Below, piece by piece: positions 1 through 12,906 of a stretch of DNA of 12,906 bases (the stretch's first letter is position 1; each line of letters starts with the position of its first letter). The notes beneath the pieces were generated by a model. The model saw only the letters and a list, made by a program, of their open reading frames with translations, was not told the origin of the DNA and made no database searches. Origin of the DNA: a virus (lineage: Duplodnaviria > Heunggongvirae > Uroviricota > Caudoviricetes); IMG/VR virus record IMGVR_UViG_2541047938_000002; one strand, given 5' to 3'. Position numbers and translations under genes: made by a program.

Positions 1-1053
1 TTACGGGGTAATGCCAACCGCTGCCGCCACTTTGTCGCCACTTGGCAGCGTTGCCAGAGGATTGAAACGGAGCGCCGTTTCCAGATGATCCGGTGCCAGA
101 TGTGCGTAACGCATAGTCATTTTTATATCGTGGTGTCCGAGAATTTTTTGTAAGGCCAGAATGTTTCCACCCGACATCATGAAGTGCGCCGCAAACGTAT
201 GGCGCAGAACGTGTGTGAGTTGACCGCGAGGGAGCACGATAGACGTTTTTTCCATCACGGATAAAAATTGAAAATAGCAGTCTGTGAAGAAATTGAACCC
301 ATCAAGCGCCATGATCTCTTCGTAAAGCTCTTTACTGATAGGGATGCTTCTGTTTTTCTTCCCCTTCGTTCTTACAAAGGTAATTCGGTATTTGGTCACC
401 TGTGAACGAGTAAGATTTACGGCTTCTCGCCAGCGTGCGCCTGTGCTTAAGCATATCTTAACTACCAGTGCCAGAATTGGGTCCTGACGTTTGCAATCAG
501 CCAGTAATTCAACAATCTGCTCATGGGTAAGCCATGCCATCTCTTTTTCTGCGATGGTGAATTTTCGCATGTTCTCCAGTGGGTTCGGATACGACCATTC
601 GCCCAGGCGGGATAGTTCGCTAAAAACACTACTTAGATAGCTTTGCTCCAGGTTAATGGTGACCGGGCTTGCTCCTTTCTTCCATTTCTCGCTGAAGTAG
701 ATCTCACCTGTCAGGCGTTTATCTCGATAGTGGGCAAACATTTTAGAGGTTAGATCAGTTGCAAGGGGATTGCCCAGAGCGTCAACCATCAGCAGCAATT
801 TGTCATAGACATGCTGCCCAGCAGTCAGTGATTTACCATGTAGTTTGAACCATAGCTCAACCACGTCTTTCAGTGTTCGACGATCCACTGATTCACCTAG
901 CCAGGGCTTTGCTTCGGTTTCTTCCATCGTGTGACGCTCAAAAGCCAGTGCTTCGCCTTTGGTGGCGAATTGTTTACGCACACGACGCCCACTACGTCCG
1001 GCGGGGTAACATTCGCAAAGCCATTTTCCTGTGGTGAGTTTTCGTACAGCCAT
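1..1053 (-). CDS. int: Tyrosine integrase, P2/186 family (350 aa)
   Basis: Track ORF 1..1131(-). Best start is ATG 1053-1051, preceded by GGAGGG (1067-1062); the upstream 26 codons of the track ORF have no support. Tyrosine-recombinase signatures are present (GARWREA, LRHTFAAHF, MTMRYAHL) and the N-terminus MAVRKLTTGKW resembles P2 Int. The stop codon is bases 3-1, so the CDS ends at the window edge. Confidence 0.9.
   Translation of the reverse strand: MAVRKLTTGKWLCECYPAGRSGRRVRKQFATKGEALAFERHTMEETEAKPWLGESVDRRTLKDVVELWFKLHGKSLTAGQHVYDKLLLMVDALGNPLATDLTSKMFAHYRDKRLTGEIYFSEKWKKGASPVTINLEQSYLSSVFSELSRLGEWSYPNPLENMRKFTIAEKEMAWLTHEQIVELLADCKRQDPILALVVKICLSTGARWREAVNLTRSQVTKYRITFVRTKGKKNRSIPISKELYEEIMALDGFNFFTDCYFQFLSVMEKTSIVLPRGQLTHVLRHTFAAHFMMSGGNILALQKILGHHDIKMTMRYAHLAPDHLETALRFNPLATLPSGDKVAAAVGITP
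19..40. repeat. Candidate attL core (left copy of direct repeat CGCTGCCGCCAYTTTGTCGCCA)
   Basis: 22-bp stretch inside the 3' end of int, identical at 21/22 positions to 10052-10073 immediately after the ogr stop (C at 30 versus T at 10063). The positions match the P2 ogr-attP-int topology. Confidence 0.55.
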
Positions 1054-1078
1054 AAAAAATGCCCTCCAATAGAGAGCA

Positions 1079-1106
1079 TTTTTACTGTATGTATAACCAG
1101 TGTCAA
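1079..1106 (-). promoter_or_regulatory. Candidate sigma70 promoter for int with an overlapping LexA-like SOS box
   Basis: On the minus strand: -35 TTGACA (1106-1101), 16-bp spacer, -10 TAAAAA (1084-1079), then the int RBS and ATG about 25 bp downstream. The plus-strand 20-mer TACTGTATGTATAACCAGTG (1083-1102) fits CTG-N10-CAG with an AT-rich spacer and sits in the promoter spacer. Confidence 0.4.
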
Positions 1107-1241
1107 TGTATGAAATCCTGCGACCATACATCTCACTGAAGCCATAATGAAGTAGGCTATTCTTTTTGCTATGTGATCATGTAACTTTTGCGGTTAACCT
1201 GTGGCTCATTTTTATTTTAGGCGCAGATATAAAAGCAAAAG

Positions 1242-1433
1242 TTATCGTGAGTTTTTAGTACAGATTTTTTTGGATTTACTAATAGTTCCATCATTGCAAA
1301 CGAATTTGCCATCAGAGGTACAGTGAGAAACACCTCCCTTTTTCCCTGAGCAGGGATAATTTCTAGCATAGGTAGCTAGTGGGTTTAATAACAAAGAACA
1401 TGACAAAACCACAAAAAATACCTTACCAAGCAT
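1242..1433 (-). CDS. Small secreted, cysteine-containing basic protein (63 aa), hypothetical; possible lysogenic-conversion moron
   Basis: ATG 1433-1431 with SD GGGAGG 5 nt upstream, starting 18 nt after the cI stop. N-terminal signal-peptide-like segment [23 protein letters not shown]; predicted mature part about 40 aa with 4 Cys and many Lys. AT-rich by eye. Confidence 0.55.
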
Positions 1434-1448
1434 AATTTCCTCCCGGTA

Positions 1449-2018
1449 CTATTTAACATACTTGACTGTTAAACTTATAATTTTACCAATTATTTCAATG
1501 TCTTCTATCTTACATTCAAAGGCTCTGTTTCCACCCTCGACGAAGATTCTTCCACCGGGTAAACGAGTAATGTCACGGATCGTTATTTCGCCATCAATAC
1601 TTATTACCCATTTACCATCACGTATATCATCAAATTCCTTATCACAAATAAATTCAGAATTATTATCTGTGATTACAAAAAGATTCTTGAATGCCGACGG
1701 TAGAAATTCTCTATCGAAAATATAAAAACCGTCTTCACACAAGGCCCCATCAGATAATACATATTTAGCAACTTCCATAGTATTTGTATTACCTGAAGTT
1801 TGCTTTGAACCATGCCCGGTTGTGAGCCAATTAAGCGAGGTGCCTGTTTCAAGGGCGCACTGGATTACCCATTCTGCTGGGAATGAGTCACGCATGTAGC
1901 GTGTGGCGAGTGTACTTTTAGAGATTCCTAAATGATCGCACAACGCCTGTCGAGTCTTGAATCCATAAGCTTCTACCATGCGCTCTATGGCGCCTCGTCC
2001 GCCTTTCTCCAAATTCAT
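1449..2018 (-). CDS. cI: CI immunity repressor, phage 186 type (189 aa)
   Basis: Track ORF 1449..2024(-); preferred start ATG 2018-2016 with GGAG 5 nt upstream. N-terminal HTH-like region (GFKTRQALCDHLGISKSTLATRYMR) and overall resemblance to 186 CI. Divergent from the apl-cII operon, as in 186. Confidence 0.85.
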   Translation of the reverse strand: MNLEKGGRGAIERMVEAYGFKTRQALCDHLGISKSTLATRYMRDSFPAEWVIQCALETGTSLNWLTTGHGSKQTSGNTNTMEVAKYVLSDGALCEDGFYIFDREFLPSAFKNLFVITDNNSEFICDKEFDDIRDGKWVISIDGEITIRDITRLPGGRIFVEGGNRAFECKIEDIEIIGKIISLTVKYVK

Positions 2019-2029
2019 GGTCACTCCAA

Positions 2030-2083
2030 GTGAACTTTTATCTTGACGATTTCACCGTGCGATCGTATGTTTATGGTGTTCAC
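2030..2083 (+). promoter_or_regulatory. Candidate early rightward promoter (pR-like) flanked by an inverted repeat, possible CI operator half-sites
   Basis: -35 TTGACG (2043-2048), 17-bp spacer, -10 TATGTT (2066-2071) upstream of apl. GTGAAC (2030-2035) and GTTCAC (2078-2083) form an inverted repeat bracketing the promoter. Operator assignment is inference. Confidence 0.35.
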
Positions 2084-2143
2084 AAAATACAAACGATCCG
2101 TATTCGTCCTGATTAATCATCATTAAACGAGGAATGTTGCATC

Positions 2144-2365
2144 ATGAGACCTAACATTTCAATCACTCTTACCACGCCTCATGTGACTATTGAACGCTAT
2201 AGCGAGCTGACAGGGCTATCCATCGATACCATCAATGACATGTTGGCTGATGGACGCCTTATCCGTCACCGTCTGCGCAAAGATAAAAAACGCGAAAAAG
2301 TGATGATCAACATAGCAGCAATGACCGTTGATGCGCTTTCAGAATGCAATCTAAACCTTAATTAG
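2144..2365 (+). CDS. apl: Apl/Cox-family excisionase and transcriptional regulator (73 aa)
   Basis: First gene of the rightward operon, divergent from cI. HTH-like segment [25 protein letters not shown]; GAGG about 11 nt upstream of the ATG. Assigned by position and size. Confidence 0.6.
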
Positions 2366-2397
2366 TTCGATTCTGAAATACATCAGAGGCATTGACC

Positions 2398-2907
2398 ATG
2401 TTTGATTACCAAGTTTCCAAACATCCACATTTTGATGAAGCCTGTCGTGCATTTGCACTGCGCCACAATCTGGTGCAACTGGCAGAACGTGCAGGCATGA
2501 ATGTGCAGATTCTGCGGAACAAGCTGAACCCAGCTCAGCCTCATTTATTAACCGCACCAGAAATCTGGCTGCTTACCGATCTGACTGAAGATTCAACGCT
2601 GGTAGATGGTTTTCTGGCACAGATTCATTGTCTGCCATGTGTACCGATTAATGAGGTGGCAAAAGAGAAACTGCCACATTACGTCATGAGTGCAACCGCA
2701 GAGATCGGGCGTGTTGCTGCAGGTGCGGTGTCTGGCGATGTAAAAACCTGTGCCGGTCGTCGTGATGCTATCAGCAGCATTAACTCTGTAACACGACTGA
2801 TGGCGCTGGCGGCTGTTTCATTGCAGGCCCGTTTACAGGCTAATCCTGCGATGGCGAGTGCAGTTGATACCGTGACTGGCCTCGGTGCTTCATTTGGTTT
2901 GCTGTGA
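2398..2907 (+). CDS. cII: CII lysogeny-establishment activator, 186 type (169 aa)
   Basis: Track ORF 2392..2907; ATG 2398 with AGAGG 8 nt upstream. [19 protein letters not shown]... closely resembles 186 CII as I recall it. Confidence 0.85.
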
Positions 2908-2914
2908 GGTGCTT

Positions 2915-3115
2915 ATGCTGACGAAAGAACCATCATTTGCATCGCTGCTGGTTAAACAAAGCCCGGCAATGCATTACGGTCACGGCTGGATCATGGGGGA
3001 GGATGGTAAACGCTGGCATCCGTGCCGTTCACAAGATGAATTGCTGGCAGAACTATCTACGAAAAAACGGGGGAACAAATGGCTATTGAAGGCACTGCGG
3101 CGACTGTTCCATTAA
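2915..3115 (+). CDS. Hypothetical small early protein (66 aa)
   Basis: ATG 2915 with GAGG 5 nt upstream, overlapping the cII stop. Sits where 186 carries small early genes; no family recognised from sequence. Confidence 0.45.
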   Translation: MLTKEPSFASLLVKQSPAMHYGHGWIMGEDGKRWHPCRSQDELLAELSTKKRGNKWLLKALRRLFH

Positions 3116-3420
3116 GCCCCGGTGAACGCCTGAATGGACTTAATCACATTGCGGAGTTAAGGGCGAAAGTTTTTGGCCTGAATATTGAGTCAGAGCTTGA
3201 GCGGTTTATTAAAGATATGCGTGATTCACGGGATATTAATAGCGAACAAAATAAACGGGCACTGGCTGCCATATTCTTTATGGCAAAAATTCCAGCTGAA
3301 CGTCATAGCATCAGCATTAATGAGCTGACCACTGACGAAAAGCGGGAGTTGATTAAAGCAATGAATCATTTTCGTGCAGTGGTGAGCTTATTTCCCAGAC
3401 GGCTAACCATGCCGAATTAA
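3079..3420 (+). CDS. Hypothetical early protein (113 aa)
   Basis: ATG 3079 with GGGGGA SD; overlaps the preceding ORF by 37 nt in another frame. No family recognised. Confidence 0.5.
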   Translation: MAIEGTAATVPLSPGERLNGLNHIAELRAKVFGLNIESELERFIKDMRDSRDINSEQNKRALAAIFFMAKIPAERHSISINELTTDEKRELIKAMNHFRAVVSLFPRRLTMPN

Positions 3421-3487
3421 CCAACTAATGAAATTAATGGCGTAAACCCGCCGGGCATCCCTTTATCTAAATTCAGGAGAATTGATT

Positions 3488-3721
3488 ATGCGTAATATTG
3501 AAACCCTCTCGACCAAAACCGGACCGGATGACGCAGGGCTTAATATTTTACTGACAGAGGCTCGTCTGGAAGAACGCCGGGCAAGGGCTGAAGCAATGGC
3601 AGCTCGCCTTGATAGCCTGGCGTGTCATATCACATCCCGCCAGCTAACCCACGTCGAAGCGGCAGAACTGCTTCGTGTGACTGCTGAAGCAATCCAGAAC
3701 GAAGCGCAGGAGATCCACTAA
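3488..3721 (+). CDS. Hypothetical early protein (77 aa)
   Basis: ATG 3488 with AGGAGA 7 nt upstream (the track begins at TTG 3482). Its stop overlaps the next start (TAATG). Confidence 0.55.
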   Translation: MRNIETLSTKTGPDDAGLNILLTEARLEERRARAEAMAARLDSLACHITSRQLTHVEAAELLRVTAEAIQNEAQEIH

Positions 3722-3948
3722 TGGCTGATGCAATGGATCTCGTACAGCAGCGCGTTGAAGAAGAACGCCAACGCCATATCCGTGCTGCCCGTGCCAAAAC
3801 GCCGGGCGTGTCCCGCGTGCTTTGCATTGAGTGTGAAGCGCCAATTCCGCCAGCACGCCGCCGTGCCATTCCGGGTGTGCAGCTTTGCATTACCTGTCAG
3901 GAAATCGCAGAGCTGAAAGGCAAACATTACAACGGAGGTGCTGTATGA
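3721..3948 (+). CDS. TraR/DksA-family C4 zinc-finger protein (75 aa)
   Basis: C-x2-C-x17-C-x2-C motif (CIECEAPIPPARRRAIPGVQLCITC); start and stop coupled to neighbouring genes. Common in P2-family early operons. Confidence 0.75.
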   Translation: MADAMDLVQQRVEEERQRHIRAARAKTPGVSRVLCIECEAPIPPARRRAIPGVQLCITCQEIAELKGKHYNGGAV

Positions 3949-4802
3949 GCACCATCCTGAAATGGGCGGGAAATAAAACTGCCATAATGTCCGAACTGAA
4001 AAAACATCTTCCTGCTGGCCCGCGACTGGTTGAACCTTTCGCGGGTTCCTGTGCTGTGATGATGGAGACGGATTATCCCAGCTATCTGGTTGCGGATATT
4101 AATCCTGATTTAATCAACCTCTATAAAAAGGTTGCCGCTGATTGTGAATCGTTTATATCTCGCGCCAGAGTTTTATTTGAGAACGCAAACAGGGAGGTGG
4201 CTTATTACAACATAAGGCAGGAGTTTAATTACTCAACTGAAATTACTGATTTCATGAAAGCGGTATATTTCCTGTATCTCAATCGTCACGGTTACCGTGG
4301 TTTATGTCGCTATAACAAGAGCGGGCATTTCAACATTCCCTACGGTAATTATAAAAATCCGTATTTCCCTGAAAAAGAAATTCGCGCATTTGCAGAAAAG
4401 GCCCAGCGAGCAACGTTTATCTGCGCCAGCTTTGATGAAACGCTGGCGATGTTGAAGGCGGGGGATGTGGTGTATTGCGATCCGCCGTATGACGGTACGT
4501 TTTCCGGCTATCACACTGACGGCTTCACTGAAGATGACCAGTATCACCTGGCATCTGTTCTTGAACATCGGTCATCAGAAGGACATCCGGTCATTGTTTC
4601 TAACAGTGACACATCCCTGATCCGTTCGCTGTATCGCAATTTTACTCACCACTACATCAAGGCAAAACGCAGCATCGGTGTGGCAGCTGGCGAGGGTAAA
4701 TCAGCAACAGAAATCATTGCTGTTTCCGGGCCGCGCTGCTGGGTGGGATTTGATTATTCGCGTGGCGTGGATAGTTCTGCCGTGTACGGAGTACGTGCAT
4801 GA
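3945..4802 (+). CDS. dam: DNA adenine methyltransferase, Dam family (285 aa)
   Basis: Track ORF starts at 3885; preferred ATG 3945 ([11 protein letters not shown]) with GGAGG 6 nt upstream. Has the SAM-binding LKWAGNK motif and the catalytic DPPY motif; strong resemblance to E. coli Dam. Confidence 0.9.
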
Positions 4803-6223
4803 GTCATGCCGATATGAACAACTGCTGCGGCTTTAACGAAGCTGCCGCATCGTTCTCATGGAACAGCTCGAAAAAGGCCATTAACCCTTATCTGGACCCG
4901 GTGGAAGTTGCGCCGGTTTCTACGCTTTCAAACCTGATCACTCTGTACGCTGCCGATAACGAGCAGGAACAGCTGCGCCGTGAGGCGCTGAGTGATCAGG
5001 TCTGGGAGCGTTATTTCTTTAATGAATCCCGTGATCCTGTCCAGCGCGAAATGGAACAGGATAAGCTCATTAGTCGGGCAAAGCTGGCGCATGAGCAGCA
5101 GCGTTTTAATCCGGATATGGTCATTCTGGCGGACGTCAACGCCCAGCCTTCCCATATCAGCAAGCCGCTGATGCAACGTATTGAATACTTCAGCAGCCTG
5201 GGCAGGCCAAAGGCTTATTCCCGCTATTTACGTGAGACGATTAAGCCATGTCTGGAACGACTGGAGCATGTACGCGACAGTCAGCTATCTGCATCTTTTC
5301 GCTTTATGGCAAGCCATGAAGGGCTGGACGGCCTGCTGATCCTGCCTGAAATGAGTCAGGATCAGGTGAAACGCCTGTCCACCCTGGTAGCTGCGCATAT
5401 GAGTATGTGCCTTGATGCCGCTTGTGGCGATTTGTATGCCACCGATGACGTTAAGCCAGAAGAAATCCGCAATACATGGGAAAGGGTGGCAGCGGAAACC
5501 CTGCGTCTGGATGTCATCCCGCCTGCGTTTGAGCAACTCCGTCGGAAAAGAAACCGCCGTAAACCCGTGCCCTATGAACTCATTCCGGGTTCGCTGGCGC
5601 GTATGTTGTGCGCCGACTGGTGGTATCGGAAATTATGGAAGATGCGTTGCGAATGGCGGGAAGAGCAGTTGCGTGCTGTCTGCCTTGTCAGCAAAAAAGC
5701 ATCTCCCTATGTCAGCTATGAAGCCGTGTTGCATAAACGTGAGCAGCGCCGTAAGTCGCTGGAGTTTTTCCGTTCTCATGAACTGGTGAACGAAGACGGC
5801 GACACGCTAGACATGGAGGATGTGGTAAACGCCAGCAGCAGCAACCCTGCGCATCGCCGCAATGAGATGATGGCCTGTGTTAAAGGTCTGGAGCTTATCG
5901 CGGAAATGCGCGGTGACTGCGCCGTTTTCTACACCATCACCTGTCCGTCACGTTTCCATTCCACGCTAAATAACGGCAGGCCCAACCCGACCTGGACAAA
6001 TGCGACGGTAAGACAAAGCAGCGATTATCTGGTCGGTATGTTTGCTGCATTTCGTAAGGCGATGCACAAAGCCGGGTTGCGCTGGTATGGCGTGCGGGTG
6101 TCAGTGTGGTGTTCATGGCACAAACCTACAGCCTTGAATGAAGGCTTTCCCCGCCTGCGGTTTGTGTGGTTGTCGGTACAAATACCGCGCATTGTTTCAC
6201 TGCCCCCATCACCGCAACCATAA
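4799..6223 (+). pseudogene. A: Replication initiation endonuclease A (P2 gpA / 186 A family), apparently truncated with a non-homologous tail
   Basis: ATG 4799 overlaps the dam stop (ATGA), GGAG upstream. Resembles the N-terminal ~430 aa of P2-family A (…ITCPSRFH…RWYGVRV). After about 6100 the frame runs 41 unrelated codons to a stop at 6223, and the HUH region I expect next (…EPHHDGT.HWH…) is absent. Confidence 0.65.
6105..6180 (+). promoter_or_regulatory. Late-promoter region with two TGT-N12-ACA (Ogr/Delta-type) activator boxes upstream of O
   Basis: TGT(6105-6107)-N12-ACA(6120-6122) and TGT(6163-6165)-N12-ACA(6178-6180). The second box is centred about 88 bp upstream of the O start codon, consistent with a -55 activator site for a start site near 6226. 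Confidence 0.45.
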
Positions 6224-6258
6224 GGCTCCAGTAAGTTTTTTCTAACGGAGCACGGCTC

Positions 6259-7086
6259 ATGACAGTGAAAGCAAAGCGTTTTCGCATCGGGGTGGAAGGT
6301 GCCACCACCGACGGACGCGAAATCCAGCGTGAATGGCTGGAACAGATGGCAGCCAGCTACAACCCGGCGGTGTATACCGCGCTGATTAACCTTGAGCACA
6401 TCAAGTCTTATCTGCCGGACAGCACCTTTAACCGCTACGGCAAGGTGACGGCGCTGTTTGCTGAAGAAATCACGGAAGGTCCGCTGGCAGGCAAGATGGC
6501 GCTGTATGCCGACGTTGAGCCAACGGAGTCCCTGGTGGAACTGGTGAAAAAAGGCCAGAAATTATTCACCTCTATGGAAGTCAGCCCGAAGTTCGCTGAT
6601 ACGGGCAAAGCCTACCTGGTCGGCCTGGCTGCTACTGATGACCCTGCCAGTCTGGGTACGGAAATGCTGACATTCAGCGCCAGTGCAGCCCATAACCCGC
6701 TGGCAAACCGCAAGCAGAATCCTGCCAATCTCTTTACCGCTGCAGAGGAAACGGTGATCGAACTGGAAGAAATCCAGGACGACAAACCGTCCCTGTTTGC
6801 CCGCGTCACGGCGCTGTTTACCAAAAAAGAGCAGTCCGATGACGCCCGGTTCTCTGATGTGCATAAGGCCGTGGAGCTGGTCGCCACTGAGCAGCAGAAC
6901 CTGAGTGCACGCACCGAAAAATCCCTGTCTGAGCAGGAAGAACGCCTGTCTGAGCTGGAGACTGCCCTGCAGGCACAGCAAACCGCCTTTAACGAACTGG
7001 TGGACAAGCTGAGTCATGAAGACAGTCGCCAGGACTACCGCCAGCGTGCAACAGGCGGTACCTGCATTTTCATAAATACTTTTTAG
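6259..7086 (+). CDS. O: Capsid scaffold protein gpO (275 aa), C-terminal ~9 residues replaced at a deletion junction
   Basis: ATG 6259 with GGAG 8 nt upstream. FRIGVEG…DGR…INLEH…SMEV.P.FA.TGK.YLVGLAATDDPASLGTE… resembles P2 gpO. Similarity is lost after …ATGG (about 7059) and the frame ends TCIFINTF. Confidence 0.8.
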   Translation: MTVKAKRFRIGVEGATTDGREIQREWLEQMAASYNPAVYTALINLEHIKSYLPDSTFNRYGKVTALFAEEITEGPLAGKMALYADVEPTESLVELVKKGQKLFTSMEVSPKFADTGKAYLVGLAATDDPASLGTEMLTFSASAAHNPLANRKQNPANLFTAAEETVIELEEIQDDKPSLFARVTALFTKKEQSDDARFSDVHKAVELVATEQQNLSARTEKSLSEQEERLSELETALQAQQTAFNELVDKLSHEDSRQDYRQRATGGTCIFINTF

Positions 7087-7295
7087 CTCATCAGCGTAGA
7101 ACGCATTTTCTTTTGCAGAATAAAACATATTAATCACCATCCAATCGCGAAAACTCTAAAGCCACCGTAGCCAGCACATGTAATTTGAGTTTTTGTCATA
7201 CCAGTGTAATACGTTCTACCAACAGCCAAATTATATGCAGTTGTAGAACTCAAATCAGCAGCCCCAGTTGATACATCACTAAATAACGGAATCAT
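7060..7295 (-). pseudogene. Remnant of a tail-fibre gene 3' end plus the 5' end of a tail-fibre assembly (Tfa) gene, inverted relative to the other late genes
   Basis: Minus-strand ORF 7295..7134 (…AGYGGFRVFAIGW*) whose TGA overlaps ATG 7140 of a second reading frame, MVINMFYSAKENAFYADELKSIYENAG, in the ATGGTGA arrangement typical of fibre/tfa pairs. That N-terminus matches the conserved start of Tfa proteins as I recall it. The frame becomes antisense O after about 26 codons. Confidence 0.5.
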
Positions 7296-8163
7296 GCACT
7301 CATTTGGGAATGCAATAGGGAAACCCATCACCGCATTTCTCGGTGGCGTGGTGGAAGGATTCAAAGCGGCGGCAGGTCCCATCAGTGCTGCATTCGAACC
7401 ACTTAAGCCTGTGTTTCAGTGGATTGGCGACAAAGTACAGGCGCTGTGGGGCTGGTTTACTGATCTGCTGACGCCCGTTAAGTCGACCTCTGCCGAACTG
7501 CAGAGTGCAGCGGCAATGGGGCGACGATTCGGGGAGGCACTGGCGGAAGGGCTGAATATGGTCATGCATCCGCTGGACTCCCTGAAATCCGGCGTTTCCT
7601 GGTTGCTGGAGAAGCTCGGCATTGTCAGTAAAGAGGCCGCAAAGGCAAAACTGCCGGAAAGCGTGACGCGTCAGCAACCTGCGACGGTGAATGCAGACGG
7701 TAAAGTGATGATGCCATTGGGTGGTTTTCCATCATGGGGATATGGCTTTGCGGGGATGTATGACAGCGGCGGGTATATCCCGCGCGGGCAGTTTGGCATC
7801 GTCGGTGAAAACGGGCCGGAAATTGTTAACGGCCCGGCAAATGTGACCAGCCGGAGAAATACCGCTGCACTGGCTGCCGTTGTTGCCGGAATGATGGGCG
7901 TTGCTGCCGCGCCTGCAGAGCTTCCACCGTTGCACCCTTTGGCACTTCCCGCGAAAGGCGGCGAAGCGATGGTGAGTCGTGCAGCCACTGTGCCGCCCGT
8001 TCAACGGATTGAGGCACCGATGCAGATCATCATTCAGACGCAGCCAGGACAAAGTGCGCAGGATATTGCGCGGGAGGTGGCCCGCCAGCTTGATGAACGT
8101 GAACGCAGGCTGAAAGCAAAAGCCAGGAGTAACTACAGCGATCAGGGGGGATACGACGCATGA
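7294..8163 (+). pseudogene. T: Tail tape-measure protein (gpT family), C-terminal ~289 aa only
   Basis: The frame opens at ATG 7294 exactly at the junction with the inverted fibre fragment. Contains GIVGENGPE and Gly/Ala-rich segments typical of P2-family tape-measure C-termini; these proteins are about 800 aa. Stop overlaps the U start (ATGA). Confidence 0.7.
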
Positions 8164-8645
8164 TGATGGTGCTGGGATTGTACGTGTTTATGCTGCGCAC
8201 CGTGCCGTATCAGGAGCTGCAGTATCAACGCAGCTGGCGACATGCGGCAAACAGCCGGGTAAACCGACGTCCGTCCACGCAGTTTCTGGGACCGGACAAC
8301 GACATGCTGACGCTTTCCGGTGTTCTTATGCCGGAGATAACAGGTGGCAGGCTGTCGTTGCTGGCACTGGAGCAGATGGCAGAACAGGGGAAAGCATGGC
8401 CCCTGATTGAAGGCAGCGGCACGATTTATGGCATGTATGTGATTGAGGGACTGAATCAGACTAAAACGGAGTTTTTCCGCGACGGTATGCCGCGCCGGAT
8501 TGAGTTCACCCTGTCGCTCAAACGGGTGGATGAATCCCTGTCCGATATGTTCGGTGATCTCAGTGCGCAACTGAATAATCTGCAGGAAACGGCAACGTCT
8601 GCCTTAAGCGATATCAGTAAAACGGTGGGAGGGCTGCTGTCGTGA
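8160..8645 (+). CDS. U: Tail protein gpU (161 aa)
   Basis: ATG 8160 with G-rich SD. Position between T and D and resemblance to P2 gpU; stop overlaps the D start (GTGA). Confidence 0.8.
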   Translation: MMMVLGLYVFMLRTVPYQELQYQRSWRHAANSRVNRRPSTQFLGPDNDMLTLSGVLMPEITGGRLSLLALEQMAEQGKAWPLIEGSGTIYGMYVIEGLNQTKTEFFRDGMPRRIEFTLSLKRVDESLSDMFGDLSAQLNNLQETATSALSDISKTVGGLLS

Positions 8646-9742
8646 ATTTCAGCTCTGAACTGCTTAACAAAGGCAACAAAACTCCCGCATTCAGCATCAG
8701 TATTGAGGGCAGGGATATCACCACTGTGCTGGATAACCGCCTGATGAGTTTGACGCTGACGGATAACCGGGGCTTTGAAGCGGACCAGCTTGATCTGGAG
8801 CTGGATGACGCTGACGGAAAAATCGTGCTGCCGCGCCGTGGTGCGGTCATTACGCTGGCGCTGGGCTGGAAGGGGCAGCCGCTTTTCCCTAAAGGGGCAT
8901 TCACAGTGGACGAGATTGAACACACTGGCGCACCGGACCGCCTGACTATCCGGGCGCGAAGTGCTGATTTTCGGGAAACGCTGAATACCCGCCGTGAAAA
9001 ATCGTGGCATAAGACCACCGTCGGGGAAGTGGTGAAGGAAATAGCCGCGCGGCACAAGCTGAAGATGGCACTGGGTAAAGACCTGTCGGATAAGCCCGTG
9101 GAGCATATAGACCAGACTAATGAGAGTGACGGCAGTTTTCTGATGCGGCTGGCGAGACAGTACGGTGCCATCGCGTCGGTGAAAAATGGCAATCTGTTAT
9201 TCATCCGGCAGGGGCAGGGCAAAAGCGCCACTGGTAAACCTCTGCCAGTGATCACTATCACACGTAAGGACGGCGACAGTCACCGCTTTACCCTGGCGGA
9301 TCGCGGAGCTTACACGGGTGTAATTGCCAGCTGGTTGCATACCCGCGAACCCGCGAAGAAAGAAAGCACCACGGTGAAGCGTAAGCGCAGGACTAAGAAG
9401 CAGAAGAAAGAGCCGGAAGCGAAGCAGGGCGATTACCTGGTGGGGACGGATGAAAACGTGCTGGTACTTAATCGCACCTATGCTAATCGGAGTAACGCCG
9501 AACGGGCAGCGAAAATGCAGTGGGAACGCCTGCAACGCGGTGTTGCGTCATTCTCGCTACAACTGGCGGAAGGTCGGGCGGATCTCTACACGGAAATGCC
9601 TGTGAAGGTCAGCGGCTTTAAACAGCCGATAGATGATGCGGAATGGACCATTACCACCCTGACACATACCGTCAGCCCGGATAACGGTTTTACGACCAGT
9701 ATGGAGCTTGAAGTGAGGATTGATGATTTCGAAATGGAATGA
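8642..9742 (+). CDS. D: Tail protein gpD / late control protein D (366 aa)
   Basis: GTG 8642 with GGTGGGAGGG SD. Position immediately upstream of ogr and resemblance to P2 gpD. Confidence 0.8.
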   Translation: MNFSSELLNKGNKTPAFSISIEGRDITTVLDNRLMSLTLTDNRGFEADQLDLELDDADGKIVLPRRGAVITLALGWKGQPLFPKGAFTVDEIEHTGAPDRLTIRARSADFRETLNTRREKSWHKTTVGEVVKEIAARHKLKMALGKDLSDKPVEHIDQTNESDGSFLMRLARQYGAIASVKNGNLLFIRQGQGKSATGKPLPVITITRKDGDSHRFTLADRGAYTGVIASWLHTREPAKKESTTVKRKRRTKKQKKEPEAKQGDYLVGTDENVLVLNRTYANRSNAERAAKMQWERLQRGVASFSLQLAEGRADLYTEMPVKVSGFKQPIDDAEWTITTLTHTVSPDNGFTTSMELEVRIDDFEME

Positions 9743-9832
9743 TTCTTCGCAATGGAGAACTTTTAAGTTTGCAAAATGGAATAATACGGTATCATTGTTG
9801 TGAATTTAGCAAAAATGGGGAGAACTCGAAAA

Positions 9833-10051
9833 ATGATGATTTGCCCACTGTGTGGAAGTGCCGCCCATACTCGCAGCAGTTTTCAGGTATCTTCATTGAC
9901 CAAAGAGCGTTACAACCAGTGCCAGAACATTAACTGCAGCCATACTTTTGTTACCCATGAAACTTTTGTTCGTTCGATTGCAACGCCAAAAGAGTCAAAT
10001 CCGGTTCAGCCGCATCCAATGAAATCAGGACAGGTGGCGCTCTCTCTTTGA
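9833..10051 (+). CDS. ogr: Ogr/Delta-family zinc-finger late transcription activator (72 aa)
   Basis: Track ORF 9800..10051; preferred ATG 9833 (MMICPLCGSAAH…) giving 72 aa, as in P2 Ogr. Zinc-finger motif C-x2-C-x22-C-x4-C; GGGGAGA about 10 nt upstream. Confidence 0.9.
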   Translation: MMICPLCGSAAHTRSSFQVSSLTKERYNQCQNINCSHTFVTHETFVRSIATPKESNPVQPHPMKSGQVALSL

Positions 10052-10073
10052 CGCTGCCGCCATTTTGTCGCCA
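10052..10073. repeat. Candidate attR core (right copy of the direct repeat)
   Basis: CGCTGCCGCCATTTTGTCGCCA begins at the base after the ogr stop codon and matches 19-40 at 21/22 positions. Confidence 0.55.
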
Positions 10074-10127
10074 TCGTTAAAAAACAGTGTTTCTAACATC
10101 ATGATTTTAAACAGCTTAAATTTCAGG

Positions 10128-10174
10128 CAACAAAAAACCCATCAACCTTGAACCGAAATGGCGGGGTTGATGGG
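10128..10174 (-). terminator. Rho-independent terminator downstream of ybjL (host side of attR)
   Basis: 10-bp GC-rich stem (10138-10147 pairs with 10165-10174), 17-nt loop, then TTTTTTGTTG on the minus strand (plus A-run 10132-10137); 113 nt after the ybjL stop. Confidence 0.55.
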
Positions 10175-10286
10175 CTCCACAAAATGGGGACATCAAAGAA
10201 AAGCAGTGGCACTAATTAAGACTGATGCCCTGCGGAAAAGTTCTGCGGTTGTGCAAAAAAATTTCATTTTCAGGGCAACTTCAGTT

Positions 10287-11972
10287 TTATCCTAATCCTG
10301 GCCATACCATGACGATGATTGTCCCTGCCAGCGTCAGCAGGACGTTGGCGATTGCATAGGTGCCCGCATAGCCCAGCGCCGGGATGTTACTGCGAGCTGT
10401 ATCACTGATGATCTCCATTGCCGGCGCGCAGGTACGTGCGCCCATCATTGCGCCGAACAACAGCGCGCGGTTCATTCGCAATACATAAGCACCGAACAAG
10501 AAACAGATAACCACGGGCACCAGACTGACAATCAATCCGGCAATCAACATCTGACCGCCAATCGCGCCCAGGCCGTTATTAATACCGCTACCGGCGCTCA
10601 GACCAACGCCTGCCATAAACACCATCAAGCCGAACTCTTTCACCATGCTTAATGCACCCTGCGGAATGTAACCGAAGGTCGGGTGGTTAGCACGCATAAA
10701 GCCCAGCATAATTCCGGCGAATAACAACCCGGCAGCGTTCCCCATGCCGAAACTGAATGTGCTGAACTGGAAGGTGATCATCCCGATCATCAGCCCAATA
10801 ACAAAGAAGGCGCAGAATGCCAGCAGGTCAGTGACCTGGCTGTGAATCGAGATAAAGCCGATGCGATCGGCGATGGTTTTTACGCGGCGGGCATCGCCGC
10901 TGACTTGTAAAACGTCACCTTTGTTAAGCACGACGTTGTCATCTATCGGCATCTCAATCTGGCTACGAATGACGCGGTTAAGGAAGCAACCGTGATCGGT
11001 CAACTTCAGTTGTGCGAGACGTTTACCTACAGCGTTATGGTTTTTAACGACCACTTCTTCAGTGACGATACGCATGTCGAGAAGGTCACGATCGAAAACT
11101 TCTTTACCGTTACGGAAGCTGGGATCGAGTCGGGCATGGGCGTCGGGATAGCCTACCAACGCTATTTCATCGCCCATTTGTAGCACGGCATCACCGTCTG
11201 GATTTGCCAGAATCCCGTTACGTCGAATACGTTCAATGTAGCAGCCGGTTTGTCGATAAATACCCAGTTCACGCAGATTTTTGCCGTCGGTCCAGGCCAC
11301 CAGTTCCGGGCCGACGCGATAGGCGCGGATCACCGGTAAATAAACCTTACGGTTGGCATCAGTGTCCAGGCCACGTTCGCGGGCGATTTGCTGGGCGCTG
11401 GTCTGTAAGTCCTGATGCTGCAATTTCGGCAAGTAACGCGCACCAACAATCAAACTCACCAGACCGATTAAATAGGTTAAGGCATACCCGAGGCTCAGAT
11501 TATCCAGTGCCAGTGAGAGCTGCCTGCTTTCCATGCCGGAATGACGCAGTGTATCGCCAGCACCGACCAGAACCGGTGTCGACGTCATAGAGCCTGCTAA
11601 CATACCGGCCGTCAGGCCAATATCCCAGCCAAACAGCTTACCTAACCCTAAGGCGATCACCAGCGCACTGCCAACCATCACCAGTGCTAACATTAGGTAA
11701 TTTTTCCCATCGCGAAAAAAAATGGAAAAAAAGTTCGGTCCGGCTTCGACCCCGACGCAGAAAATAAACAGCATAAAGCCAAGATTAAGCGCATCGGTGT
11801 TAATGCTGAAATGTTGTTGGCCTAATAACAGCGATACGACTAAAACGCCAATGGAATTACCCAGTTGGATCGAACCAAGTCGTAACTTTCCGAGACATAG
11901 CCCAAGCGCGAGGACCACAAATAATAACAGAATGTAATTCCCATTTAACAATTCGGCGACGTTTATATTCAC
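10287..11972 (-). CDS. ybjL: Putative AAE-family transporter YbjL (561 aa)
   Basis: Full-length ORF whose sequence ([24 protein letters not shown]…) I recognise as E. coli YbjL; GTG start at 11972; neighbours ybjM and grxA as in E. coli. Confidence 0.9.
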
Positions 11973-12241
11973 GGAGGCTAACTTCTTGTTTACTAGTAAG
12001 CTGTTGAAAGAAATGGTAATTTACGATAATGTTTTTTACCAGAATTCAGGGCGCAGATTCATTCAGCGCACCTAAACGATAGTAAAGTAACAATATATTT
12101 TACTAGTGTAATCACATTAGGTATCAACGGCTATATGAATTGCGTTGGCCTATATTAGCATGGAATGCGAAGCGGCTTTATCTTACTGAACGCCACACTG
12201 GCGAAAAATGTGTTCGATAGACGCAGTGTCAGGAGGAACGA

Positions 12242-12619
12242 GTGAAACATAAACAACGTTGGGCGGGGGCAATCTGCTGTTTTGTCCTCTTCATTGTGGT
12301 GTGCCTTTTTCTGGCGACGCACATGAAAGGCGCTTTTCGGGCTGCCGGGCATCCTGAAATCGGCTTGCTATTTTTCATTCTTCCTGGAGCAGTCGCCAGC
12401 TTCTTTTCACAGCGTAGAGAAGTCCTGAAACCTCTGTTTGGCGCAATGCTGGCGGCACCCTGTTCGATGCTCATTATGCGGCTGTTTTTTTCACCGACGC
12501 GCTCATTCTGGCAAGAGCTGGCATGGTTACTAAGCGCGGTGTTCTGGTGTGCGCTGGGGGCACTGTGTTTCTTATTTATCAGTAGTTTGTTTAAACCACA
12601 GCACAGAAAAAATCAGTAA
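12242..12619 (+). CDS. ybjM: Inner-membrane protein YbjM (125 aa)
   Basis: GTG 12242 with AGGAGGA SD; hydrophobic multi-pass sequence; divergent from ybjL and convergent with grxA, as in E. coli. Confidence 0.85.
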   Translation: MKHKQRWAGAICCFVLFIVVCLFLATHMKGAFRAAGHPEIGLLFFILPGAVASFFSQRREVLKPLFGAMLAAPCSMLIMRLFFSPTRSFWQELAWLLSAVFWCALGALCFLFISSLFKPQHRKNQ

Positions 12620-12639
12620 AGCCCTCAACGCGAGGGCTT
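12619..12639 (-). terminator. Hairpin between convergent ybjM and grxA, probable grxA terminator
   Basis: Stem AAGCCCTC/GAGGGCTT with loop AACGC. On the minus strand a T6 run follows 6 nt after the stem; no U-tract on the plus strand. Confidence 0.4.
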
Positions 12640-12648
12640 GTCAGACGA

Positions 12649-12906
12649 TCAGGCGTCCAGATTTTCTTTCACCCATGCAGCAAAATCGGTATAGCCGCCG
12701 ATATGTTGCTGATCGACAAAAATCTGCGGCACGGTTTCTACGGGTTTACCTGCCTTTTGTTGTAGATCTTCTTTAGTGATCCCTTCCGCACGAATATCTA
12801 CATACTGATACTGAAAATCATCGCGTTCATTGCTCAATTTCTCAGCCAGATCTTTTGCACGCACACAGTAAGGGCAACCCGAACGACCAAAAATAACGGT
12901 TTGCAT
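12649..12906 (-). CDS. grxA: Glutaredoxin 1 (85 aa)
   Basis: MQTVIFGRSGCPYCVRAKDL… with the CPYC active site; recognised as E. coli GrxA. ATG at 12906-12904 at the window edge. Confidence 0.95.
   Translation of the reverse strand: MQTVIFGRSGCPYCVRAKDLAEKLSNERDDFQYQYVDIRAEGITKEDLQQKAGKPVETVPQIFVDQQHIGGYTDFAAWVKENLDA

Follow-up and report, generated by a model that had tools for sequence, protein, structure and literature searches.

How did a short piece of tail-fibre DNA come to lie backwards between the capsid scaffold gene and the tape-measure gene of a decaying prophage? The question arises from the window, the 12,906-nt stretch of DNA analysed here in full, which holds a heavily deleted 186/P2-like prophage inserted between rcdA and ybjL. 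What is left of this prophage comprises int, CI, CII, fil, dam, a shortened A, gpO, the fibre fragment (hereafter the island), the 3' end of T (T'), U, D, and ogr, followed 3' of ogr by the host genes ybjL, ybjM, and grxA. The retained int, CI/CII, A, O, T, U, D, and ogr stand in P2 order, as in P2/186-like phages (Peduoviridae), and Pfam matches were obtained in the window to Phage_CI_repr, Phage_CP76, Phage_GPA, Phage_GPO, Phage_P2_GpU, and Phage_GPD, as well as to Ogr_Delta. The intact EC102 prophage, which occupies the same site, is 96–100% identical to the window over all retained parts (1–6100 at 100%, 6093–7060 at 98%, and 7319–12906 at 98.7%), and the sole stretch of the window without an EC102 counterpart, 7061–7318, takes the place of 15.5 kb of late genes. 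Another deletion scar lies upstream at junction J1 (6093–6100), where about the first 434 codons of gene A are followed directly by the 5' end of terminase gene P and the P–O intergenic region. This junction shows an 8-bp microhomology, TGCGGGTG, and about 8.2 kb are missing there relative to the intact EC102 prophage.

BLASTN matches in nine complete E. coli genomes delimited the island to positions 7059–7323, i.e., 265 bp coding on the minus strand, which match the fibre-tip/tfa junctions of these genomes at 91.8% identity (E ~1e-106). Its GC content (36–40%) makes it a low-GC island relative to both flanks (54–62%). In the fibre frame, the minus-strand translation reads ...FPIAFPNECMIPLFSDVSTGAADLSSTTAYNLAVGRTYYTGMTKTQITCAGYGGFRVFAIGW* and corresponds to the last 62 codons and the stop of a tail-fibre tip, the variable C-terminal part of gpH (7134–7323, minus strand), with the frame ending in ...TQITCAGYGGFRVFAIGW and a TGA at 7136–7134. 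This stop overlaps the start of a tfa gene, ATG(7140)GTGATTAATATG..., the overlap being ATGGTGA, and the first 26–27 codons of tfa (7061–7140, minus strand; MVINMFYSAKENAFYADELKSIYENAG) are 100% identical at the DNA level to the tfa start of an intact prophage cassette, L005. The 62-aa tip fragment on its own passes the gathering cut-off of Gp53-like_C (PF21882; 24.9 bits), with a score of 25.6 bits (E 1.8e-5) over profile positions 25–84 of 84, while full-length homologues of the tip reach 35–40 bits. The 26-aa Tfa fragment is too short for this kind of annotation and did not match any HMM in Pfam or NCBIfam, including Caudo_TAP (PF02413), the family matched at 1e-33 by the 143-aa product of the L005 tfa gene; for fibre or Tfa proteins as a whole, NCBIfam yielded no match. 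The island is not an assembly artefact, since an independent assembly (Logan SRR958752; the contig occurs in 4 samples) contains the whole 12.9 kb at 100% identity and an 82-aa chimeric open reading frame (ORF) that spans the right edge of the island is recorded in NCBI for an E. coli contig of 3.4 Mb.

An earlier, sequence-only reading of this locus had described a tail-fibre 3' end that is stop/start-coupled to a Tfa N-terminus on the minus strand, opposite in orientation to every other late gene, with abrupt flanks in gpO on the left and in the middle of the tape-measure gene on the right. All of this is borne out by the ATGGTGA overlap, the PF21882 and BLASTN matches, the location of O, T', U, D, and ogr on the plus strand, and the limits of flanking homology (to 7060 on the left, from 7319/7322 on the right). 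The dimensions then given to the fragment, however, need to be revised: the island does not end at 7295 but runs 28 bases farther, to 7323, and the fibre fragment is 62 rather than 52 aa long, while the 26 aa assigned to the Tfa fragment proved approximately right, at 26–27 codons.

Both edges of the island are sharp at the nucleotide level. To the left, the capsid scaffold gene gpO (6259–7060, plus strand; PF05929, E 1e-112) retains its native codons 1–267, with homology ending at 7060, and its frame then continues into the island for 8 foreign codons (TCIFINTF) up to a stop at 7084–7086, the native last 10 codons being gone. In a three-way alignment of the window, intact gpO, and intact tfa, the parents have 2 bp, 'TA', in common at this gpO/tfa junction (J2, 7059–7060; GCAACAGGCGGTACCTGCATTTTC). 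To the right, at the fibre tip/T junction (J3, 7322–7323; AATAGGGAAACCCATCACC), a three-way alignment again identifies 2 bp common to the parents, here 'AA'. Fibre homology runs to 7323 and T homology begins at 7319, continuous from 7322, so the common stretch would be GGnAA if the interrupted match 7319–7323 were counted. Beyond J3, homology to intact T covers about the last 281 of 1025 codons (7324–8163, plus strand). The ORF listed for this region (7294–8163) takes its ATG and about 9 codons from the antisense strand of the island. On the minus strand, the chimeric 82-aa ORF (P0001; 7134–7382) is made of 20 codons antisense to T followed by the 62-codon tip fragment; NCBI annotates it as a 'gp53-like domain-containing protein', and it is a spurious annotation by-product of the deletion scar. 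In practical terms, the origin of the island explains both this spurious annotation and a gpO with a foreign C-terminus. J1, J2, and J3 are all ordinary scars of illegitimate recombination, and a recombinase site is not recognizable at any of these breakpoints. Chi-guided end processing was considered and rejected, as no Chi site was found close to any of the breakpoints, and a promoter/terminator scan of positions 6900–7500 returned nothing exceeding the shuffle expectation.

The source of the island can be traced through intact relatives, in which its homologues sit inside Din-type invertible segments seen in both orientations. Among Mu-like prophages with pinE, the tip–tfa pair lies against the baseplate genes (silent) in KW21 and is fused to the fibre N-terminus (active) in Combat11I9. 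These two loci (L003/L004) are 99.3–99.96% identical and differ by the inversion of a 1,834-bp segment, whose 26-bp sites, TTCTCCCAAACC-AA-GGTTTTCGAGAG and CTCTCCCAAACC-AA-CGTTTATGAAAA, have their outer half-sites exchanged between the strains. In the P2-like prophages of 02B21CPO003B and CUWW10 (L005/L007), genes V-W-J-I-H-tfa' are followed by an inverted, silent tfa and tip and then by a recombinase (Pfam PF00239 and PF02796), FI, FII, E, and T, an order and orientation collinear with the window when both are read on the plus strand with late genes on plus. The invertase of L005 shares 87% identity with PinE and 80% with Gin. The 186-like prophages at ybjL (Ecol_224, NCTC11023, MS6192, and CH468) carry the cassette in the active state, with crossover sites and without an invertase gene. 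O and T of the closest backbone (L002, L006, L014, and L015, at the same att site) are 97–98% identical to those of the window, and the cassette there is oriented opposite to the island. The 1,555-bp segments of L005 and L006 are 99.55% identical and flipped relative to each other, even though the backbones are only 65–73% identical. Crossover sites of 26 bp were found in L002–L007 and L010, and comparison of L003 with L004, and of L005 with L002, shows the half-sites swapped precisely at the central dinucleotide, as expected for site-specific inversion.

Other sources add to this picture. In metagenome contigs, a 95% identical tip (P0002) was detected in the silent position beside a resolvase, and in the EC102 prophage, which matches the window at 100% over its left arm, the corresponding position is occupied by an invertase pseudogene and tips of other types. 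Experimental work with sequencing and PCR has demonstrated that fibre segments flip in P2-like prophages of E. coli (EPEC E2348/69; Goldberg et al. 2014, PMC4272514). The proposal that the fragment came from a Gin/Cin/Pin-type invertible segment is thus upheld, near-identical cassettes being located inside Din-type segments in every intact context found. The island is the defunct remnant of a familiar flip-flop fibre switch, and in this sense an ordinary piece of an already known system. It records an ancestral Pin/Gin-type fibre switch, probably caught in one of its two states at the time of decay, and fibre fragments on the opposite strand in other prophage remnants can be read in the same way, as footprints of invertible segments.

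Comparison with the classical systems places this parent cassette more precisely. The P (Pin) segment of prophage e14 of E. coli K-12 (stfP/ycfK-tfaP, inverted tfaE-stfE, pinE) shares with it two opposed tip–tfa pairs, 26-bp crossover sites, and an adjoining serine invertase, whereas all that the window retains is a 265-bp stretch from the middle of a single pair, lacking both the sites and the invertase. At the protein level, the full-length tip of the silent cassette (tip S) and StfP share 35% identity over 123 aa (E 3e-16), and the C-terminal half of its Tfa (Tfa S) is 35% identical to TfaP, while the Tfa N-terminus is dissimilar to TfaP and TfaE. Similarity of the two fragments themselves to cassettes of e14, Mu, and P2, suggested earlier as a check on their origin, was found in one instance only: the 62-aa tip matches the StfP C-terminus (29% identity, E 0.05), and nothing else was returned, the Tfa start having no match at all. 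The Mu G segment (S-U, inverted U'-S', gin) follows the same switch logic with the same recombinase family, as seen in the 80% identity of the L005 invertase to Gin, and Mu U shares 43% identity with the C-terminal half of Tfa S. It differs in that the tip has no significant similarity to S or S', in that the host prophage here is P2/186-like, and in that the island is a relic rather than a switch. The P1 C segment has the same layout as the Mu G segment.

Further parallels come from the P2-like group. In the P2-like invertible loci of E. coli (PMC4272514), the segment lies between H and FI, which is the parent arrangement proposed here, and L005, L007, and L010 have this same H–FI layout; these loci are intact, whereas in the window both segment ends, the invertase, and most of the late region are deleted. 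Phage P2 itself has the same backbone order (O..H-G..FI-FII-E-T-U-D-ogr), and its G protein is 40% identical to the C-terminal half of Tfa S, but it carries Z/fun after H-G, with no inverted second cassette and no invertase, so that the orientation of the island cannot come from a P2-type arrangement. Among deposited phage genomes, no match was obtained to the island by blastn or to the 62-aa tip by tblastn, and the nearest deposited Tfa proteins are 50–57% identical.

None of the machinery needed for inversion is present in the window. Its length is filled by int..A', O', the island, T'UD-ogr, and host genes, which leaves no space for an invertase (Resolvase and HTH_7 domains). Remnants of crossover sites had been anticipated at the edges of the fragment (7050–7070 and 7285–7300), but none was found there: the best 26-mer in 7030–7340 matches at 14/26 positions, the best in the whole window at 17/26 against a mean maximum of 17.4 in shuffled sequence, and a half-site model (like TTCTCCCAAACC around a 2-bp core) had no match in the window. 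Instead of two opposed pairs and a constant fibre N-terminus, the window holds a single tip/tfa remnant of 62 + 27 codons, and in L005 coordinates the nearer crossover site would fall 147 bp past the right end of the island. The island is thus a non-functional interior piece of the segment which, lacking crossover sites, an invertase, and a fibre N-terminus, can neither invert nor encode a fibre.

We also considered invertase-mediated deletion at quasi-sites, as the 2-bp overlaps at J2 and J3 recall the core of a serine recombinase site. This possibility was rejected: at J3, the parental tip agrees with the left half-site consensus at only 2/12 positions (by eye), and the best 26-mer, at 14/26, remains under the shuffle maximum. 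Separately, a 15-nt inverted repeat, CTGCATTTTCATAAA (7062–7076), agrees with the outer half of the crossover site next to the invertase. It was not retained as a pseudo-site, since the junction is off the centre that such a site would have, and we regard it as unexplained or due to chance.

The island is not a uniform copy of the L005-type allele. All 22 differences between the two fall within a single 75-bp patch of the tip (7187–7260, minus strand), where the window encodes AADLSSTTAYNLAVGRTYYTGMTKTQ and L005 encodes AVDLSSTAAYSLAVGRSYYTTVTRTQ; outside of this patch, and including the whole tfa piece, the island and L005 are 100% identical. Alleles closer to the island within the patch were identified in P0002 (95% protein identity) and P0003 (94%). 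Exact-pattern scans of IMG/VR viral, genome, and metagenome contigs returned no match to the exact patch allele, nor any intact prophage carrying it. We rejected the idea of the island as a decayed pseudogene, because a single 75-bp patch contains all of the differences and the remainder is 100% identical to live cassettes. Rather than the drift of a pseudogene, this pattern is allelic mosaicism in a receptor-binding tip.

Given these observations, the island is most probably a non-functional leftover of two independent deletions, each at a 2-bp microhomology, in an ancestor that carried the cassette in the silent position. Because order and orientation in the window are collinear with those of L005 and L007, no inversion step is needed, and the simplest history consists of an ancestor with a silent S cassette followed by two plain deletions. 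J1, as a third scar, indicates that illegitimate deletions occurred repeatedly in this prophage. The agreement in orientation, taken by itself, had an even prior chance of arising. The homology, the junctions, the orientation, the parent cassette and its inversion in relatives, and the lack of sites and invertase in the window are all shown directly; as for the state of the ancestor and the number, order, and sizes of the deletions, we infer the following. The ancestor would have been a 186/P2-like prophage between rcdA and ybjL with a Din-family (Pin/Gin-type) segment between H and FI, laid out as the constant part of H, a crossover site, tip B, tfa B, the inverted tfa S and tip S, a second crossover site, and the invertase, and the S cassette would have been silent and inverted at the time of the deletions. 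Deletion 1, estimated at ~9–10 kb, would have taken out gpO from codon 268 on and everything beyond it through codon 28 of tfa S. Deletion 2, estimated at ~5–6 kb, would have extended from 62 codons before the tip stop to T codon ~745, with loss of the 5' portion of tip S, the nearer crossover site, the invertase, FI, FII, E/E', and T up to codon ~744. The remainder would be the 265 bp that include the stop of tip S and the start of tfa S, antisense to the late genes. The effects of this island are incidental only, namely a gpO closed after 8 foreign codons, an ATG for the T remnant, and the spurious 82-aa ORF.

In the lineage at the EC102 site, an invertase gene does lie between the segment and FI, present as a pseudogene in EC102 itself. 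No single-deletion intermediate was detected among 5,426 complete E. coli genomes, and exact-pattern scans returned no match to J2 in genome_contigs or to J3 in metagenome_contigs. All intact prophages of the window's own backbone that carry this cassette (5 of 5) have it in the active orientation and without an invertase, so a silent-state ancestor on that backbone is something we infer rather than observe.

This last point is also where a different history has to be weighed, in which an ancestor with an active cassette, such as Ecol_224 or NCTC11023, underwent a single complex rearrangement that deleted O to T and re-inserted the 265-bp piece backwards, either through one replication-based event with two template switches or through a three-break event. 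The five active cassettes with no invertase in cis would fit such an event, as would the missing single-deletion intermediates and the 2-bp microhomologies at J2 and J3, which are typical of template switching. However, it belongs to a rarer class of events than the documented flip of this cassette combined with simple deletions of the J1 type, a silent arrangement giving the order and orientation of the window directly exists in nature, and the lineage at this site has an invertase gene. We therefore consider either form of this single-event history unlikely.

Less likely again, and in our view improbable, is a single O-to-T deletion that was repaired with a fragment from the segment of another prophage, e.g., a Mu-like or an e14-like Pin segment. 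Such a donor would be conceivable as the same cassette occurs in unrelated backbones (Mu-like with pinE, and P2-like), and a cryptic remnant at ybjL, NCTC9041, displays a direct O–T deletion without filler at almost the same place. Yet capture of filler DNA is rare in E. coli, and the fragment found here comes from precisely the gene pair that this prophage type has within the deleted interval, which would make a foreign source an unnecessary coincidence. The window also cannot be derived from the NCTC9041 deletion by simple insertion, a scenario that we rejected: the breakpoints differ in both genes, with O extending 23 bp further and T beginning 75 bp later in the window, and the two remnants are ~2% different. 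Finally, chance similarity, a low-complexity coincidence, or an assembly chimera, for which only the short length of the two peptide fragments could be invoked, has virtually no likelihood and is excluded by the BLASTN E-value of ~1e-106 over 265 bp, the 100% identity outside of one patch, the Pfam score above the PF21882 gathering cut-off, and the identical sequence in independent assemblies; the concern, raised along with the original proposal, that the fragment might lack fibre or Tfa similarity or be of low complexity did not materialize.

Two plain deletions in a silent-cassette ancestor thus remain the preferred history of the island, whose biological importance is small. The only lead of wider interest is that deletion ends of independent remnants seem to cluster in the 3' third of T. 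Such clustering could stem from a fragile site or from selection for T'-U-D-ogr, with the AT-rich island possibly kept as a start codon or promoter for T', although we regard these explanations as doubtful. As a side observation that we leave unexplained, the 3' third of T seems to be the start point of many remnants. A 401-nt probe of T around the breakpoints gave partial matches in 23 of 1023 records, compared to 3 of 1003 for a probe of equal length 600 nt upstream and 28 of 1068 for one further downstream, with clonal copies, mosaic boundaries, and probe choice uncontrolled in these counts. Three cryptic P2-like remnants at ybjL, NCTC9041 (O–T), P276M (V–T), and PEC41 (P–T), are all direct joins and share the att site of the window, and the right arm T'-U-D-ogr is retained in NCTC9041 and PEC41; unlike the window, none of the three has an island of fibre DNA between the joined parts. 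Together with the window, they make up at least four independent remnants whose right ends fall within 127 bp of each other in T, each with a different left partner: the fibre tip in the window, O in NCTC9041, V in P276M, and terminase P in PEC41.

A 1,555-bp invertible segment, that is, the stretch between two 26-bp crossover sites, is shared at 99.55% identity between two P2-like backbones (L005 2874-4428, a prophage with its own invertase, and L006 2875-4428, a 186-like prophage at ybjL), and the fibre and sheath genes flanking it are just 65-73% identical. Because the edges of high identity coincide with the crossover sites, we infer from these alignments that the segment is transferred among phages as a module. 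Among intact 186-like prophages at ybjL, L002 retains both crossover sites together with two opposed pairs of variable fibre tip and tfa assembly gene (segment features at 7732-7891 and 9412-9437), an arrangement also seen in L006, L014, and L015. Across these four prophages, the interval between the segment and FI carries no invertase gene, and their fibre switch is either frozen or reliant on an invertase provided in trans.

Exchange at a finer scale is suggested within the tip itself. When the inverted fibre-tip and tfa scrap of the window was compared with the L005-type tip, all 22 differences fell inside a 75-bp mosaic patch (window 7187-7260), with 100% identity elsewhere in the scrap, a distribution that suggests short-patch recombination within this receptor-binding region. 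At a broader scale, the left arm of the window prophage (window 1-6100) and its host flanks are 100% identical to the intact prophage of strain EC102 (L009/L010), versus only 95.9-98.1% for O, T, U, D, and ogr (within window 6259-10000). In one of these two prophages, recombination has replaced the late region.

A 15-nt sequence, CTGCATTTTCATAAA, lies in the tfa start at window 7062-7076, 1 nt off the junction between gpO and tfa (J2). Its reverse complement is identical to the outer half of the crossover site nearest the invertase together with 5 additional nt (6004-6018 and 6428-6442 in L003, a Mu-like prophage with pinE); the centre of the pseudo-site that it forms does not coincide with J2. 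The scar also generates two spurious minus-strand ORFs, namely an 82-aa chimera (window 7134-7382), named “gp53-like domain-containing protein” at NCBI, and a 192-aa frame (window 6562-7140) that begins at the tfa ATG and continues antisense across gpO.

Within the tape-measure gene T, the right ends of deletions in four independent ybjL-site prophage remnants fall no more than 127 bp apart (coordinates: window 7319-7323; L010 8136-8263; L001 7337-7338; ~5001 in both L020 and L021). Their left partners vary: in the window T is joined to the fibre scrap, in NCTC9041 to O, in P276M to V, and in PEC41 to terminase P. Partial-coverage matches to 401-nt T probes numbered 3 of 1003 upstream, 23 of 1023 in the deletion-end region, and 28 of 1068 downstream. 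This clustering may reflect a hot region, or it may be the product of clonal copies and ascertainment.

A third deletion scar in the window (6093-6100) fuses replication gene A, cut after ~434 codons, to the first codons of terminase P at an 8-bp microhomology, TGCGGGTG; ~8.2 kb is gone, comprising the 3' end of A, cargo genes, Q, and most of P. Upstream of W, the intact-type 186-like prophage at ybjL in strain CH468 is split by a transposon-like insert with blaCTX-M-15 (L015 7304-8242).
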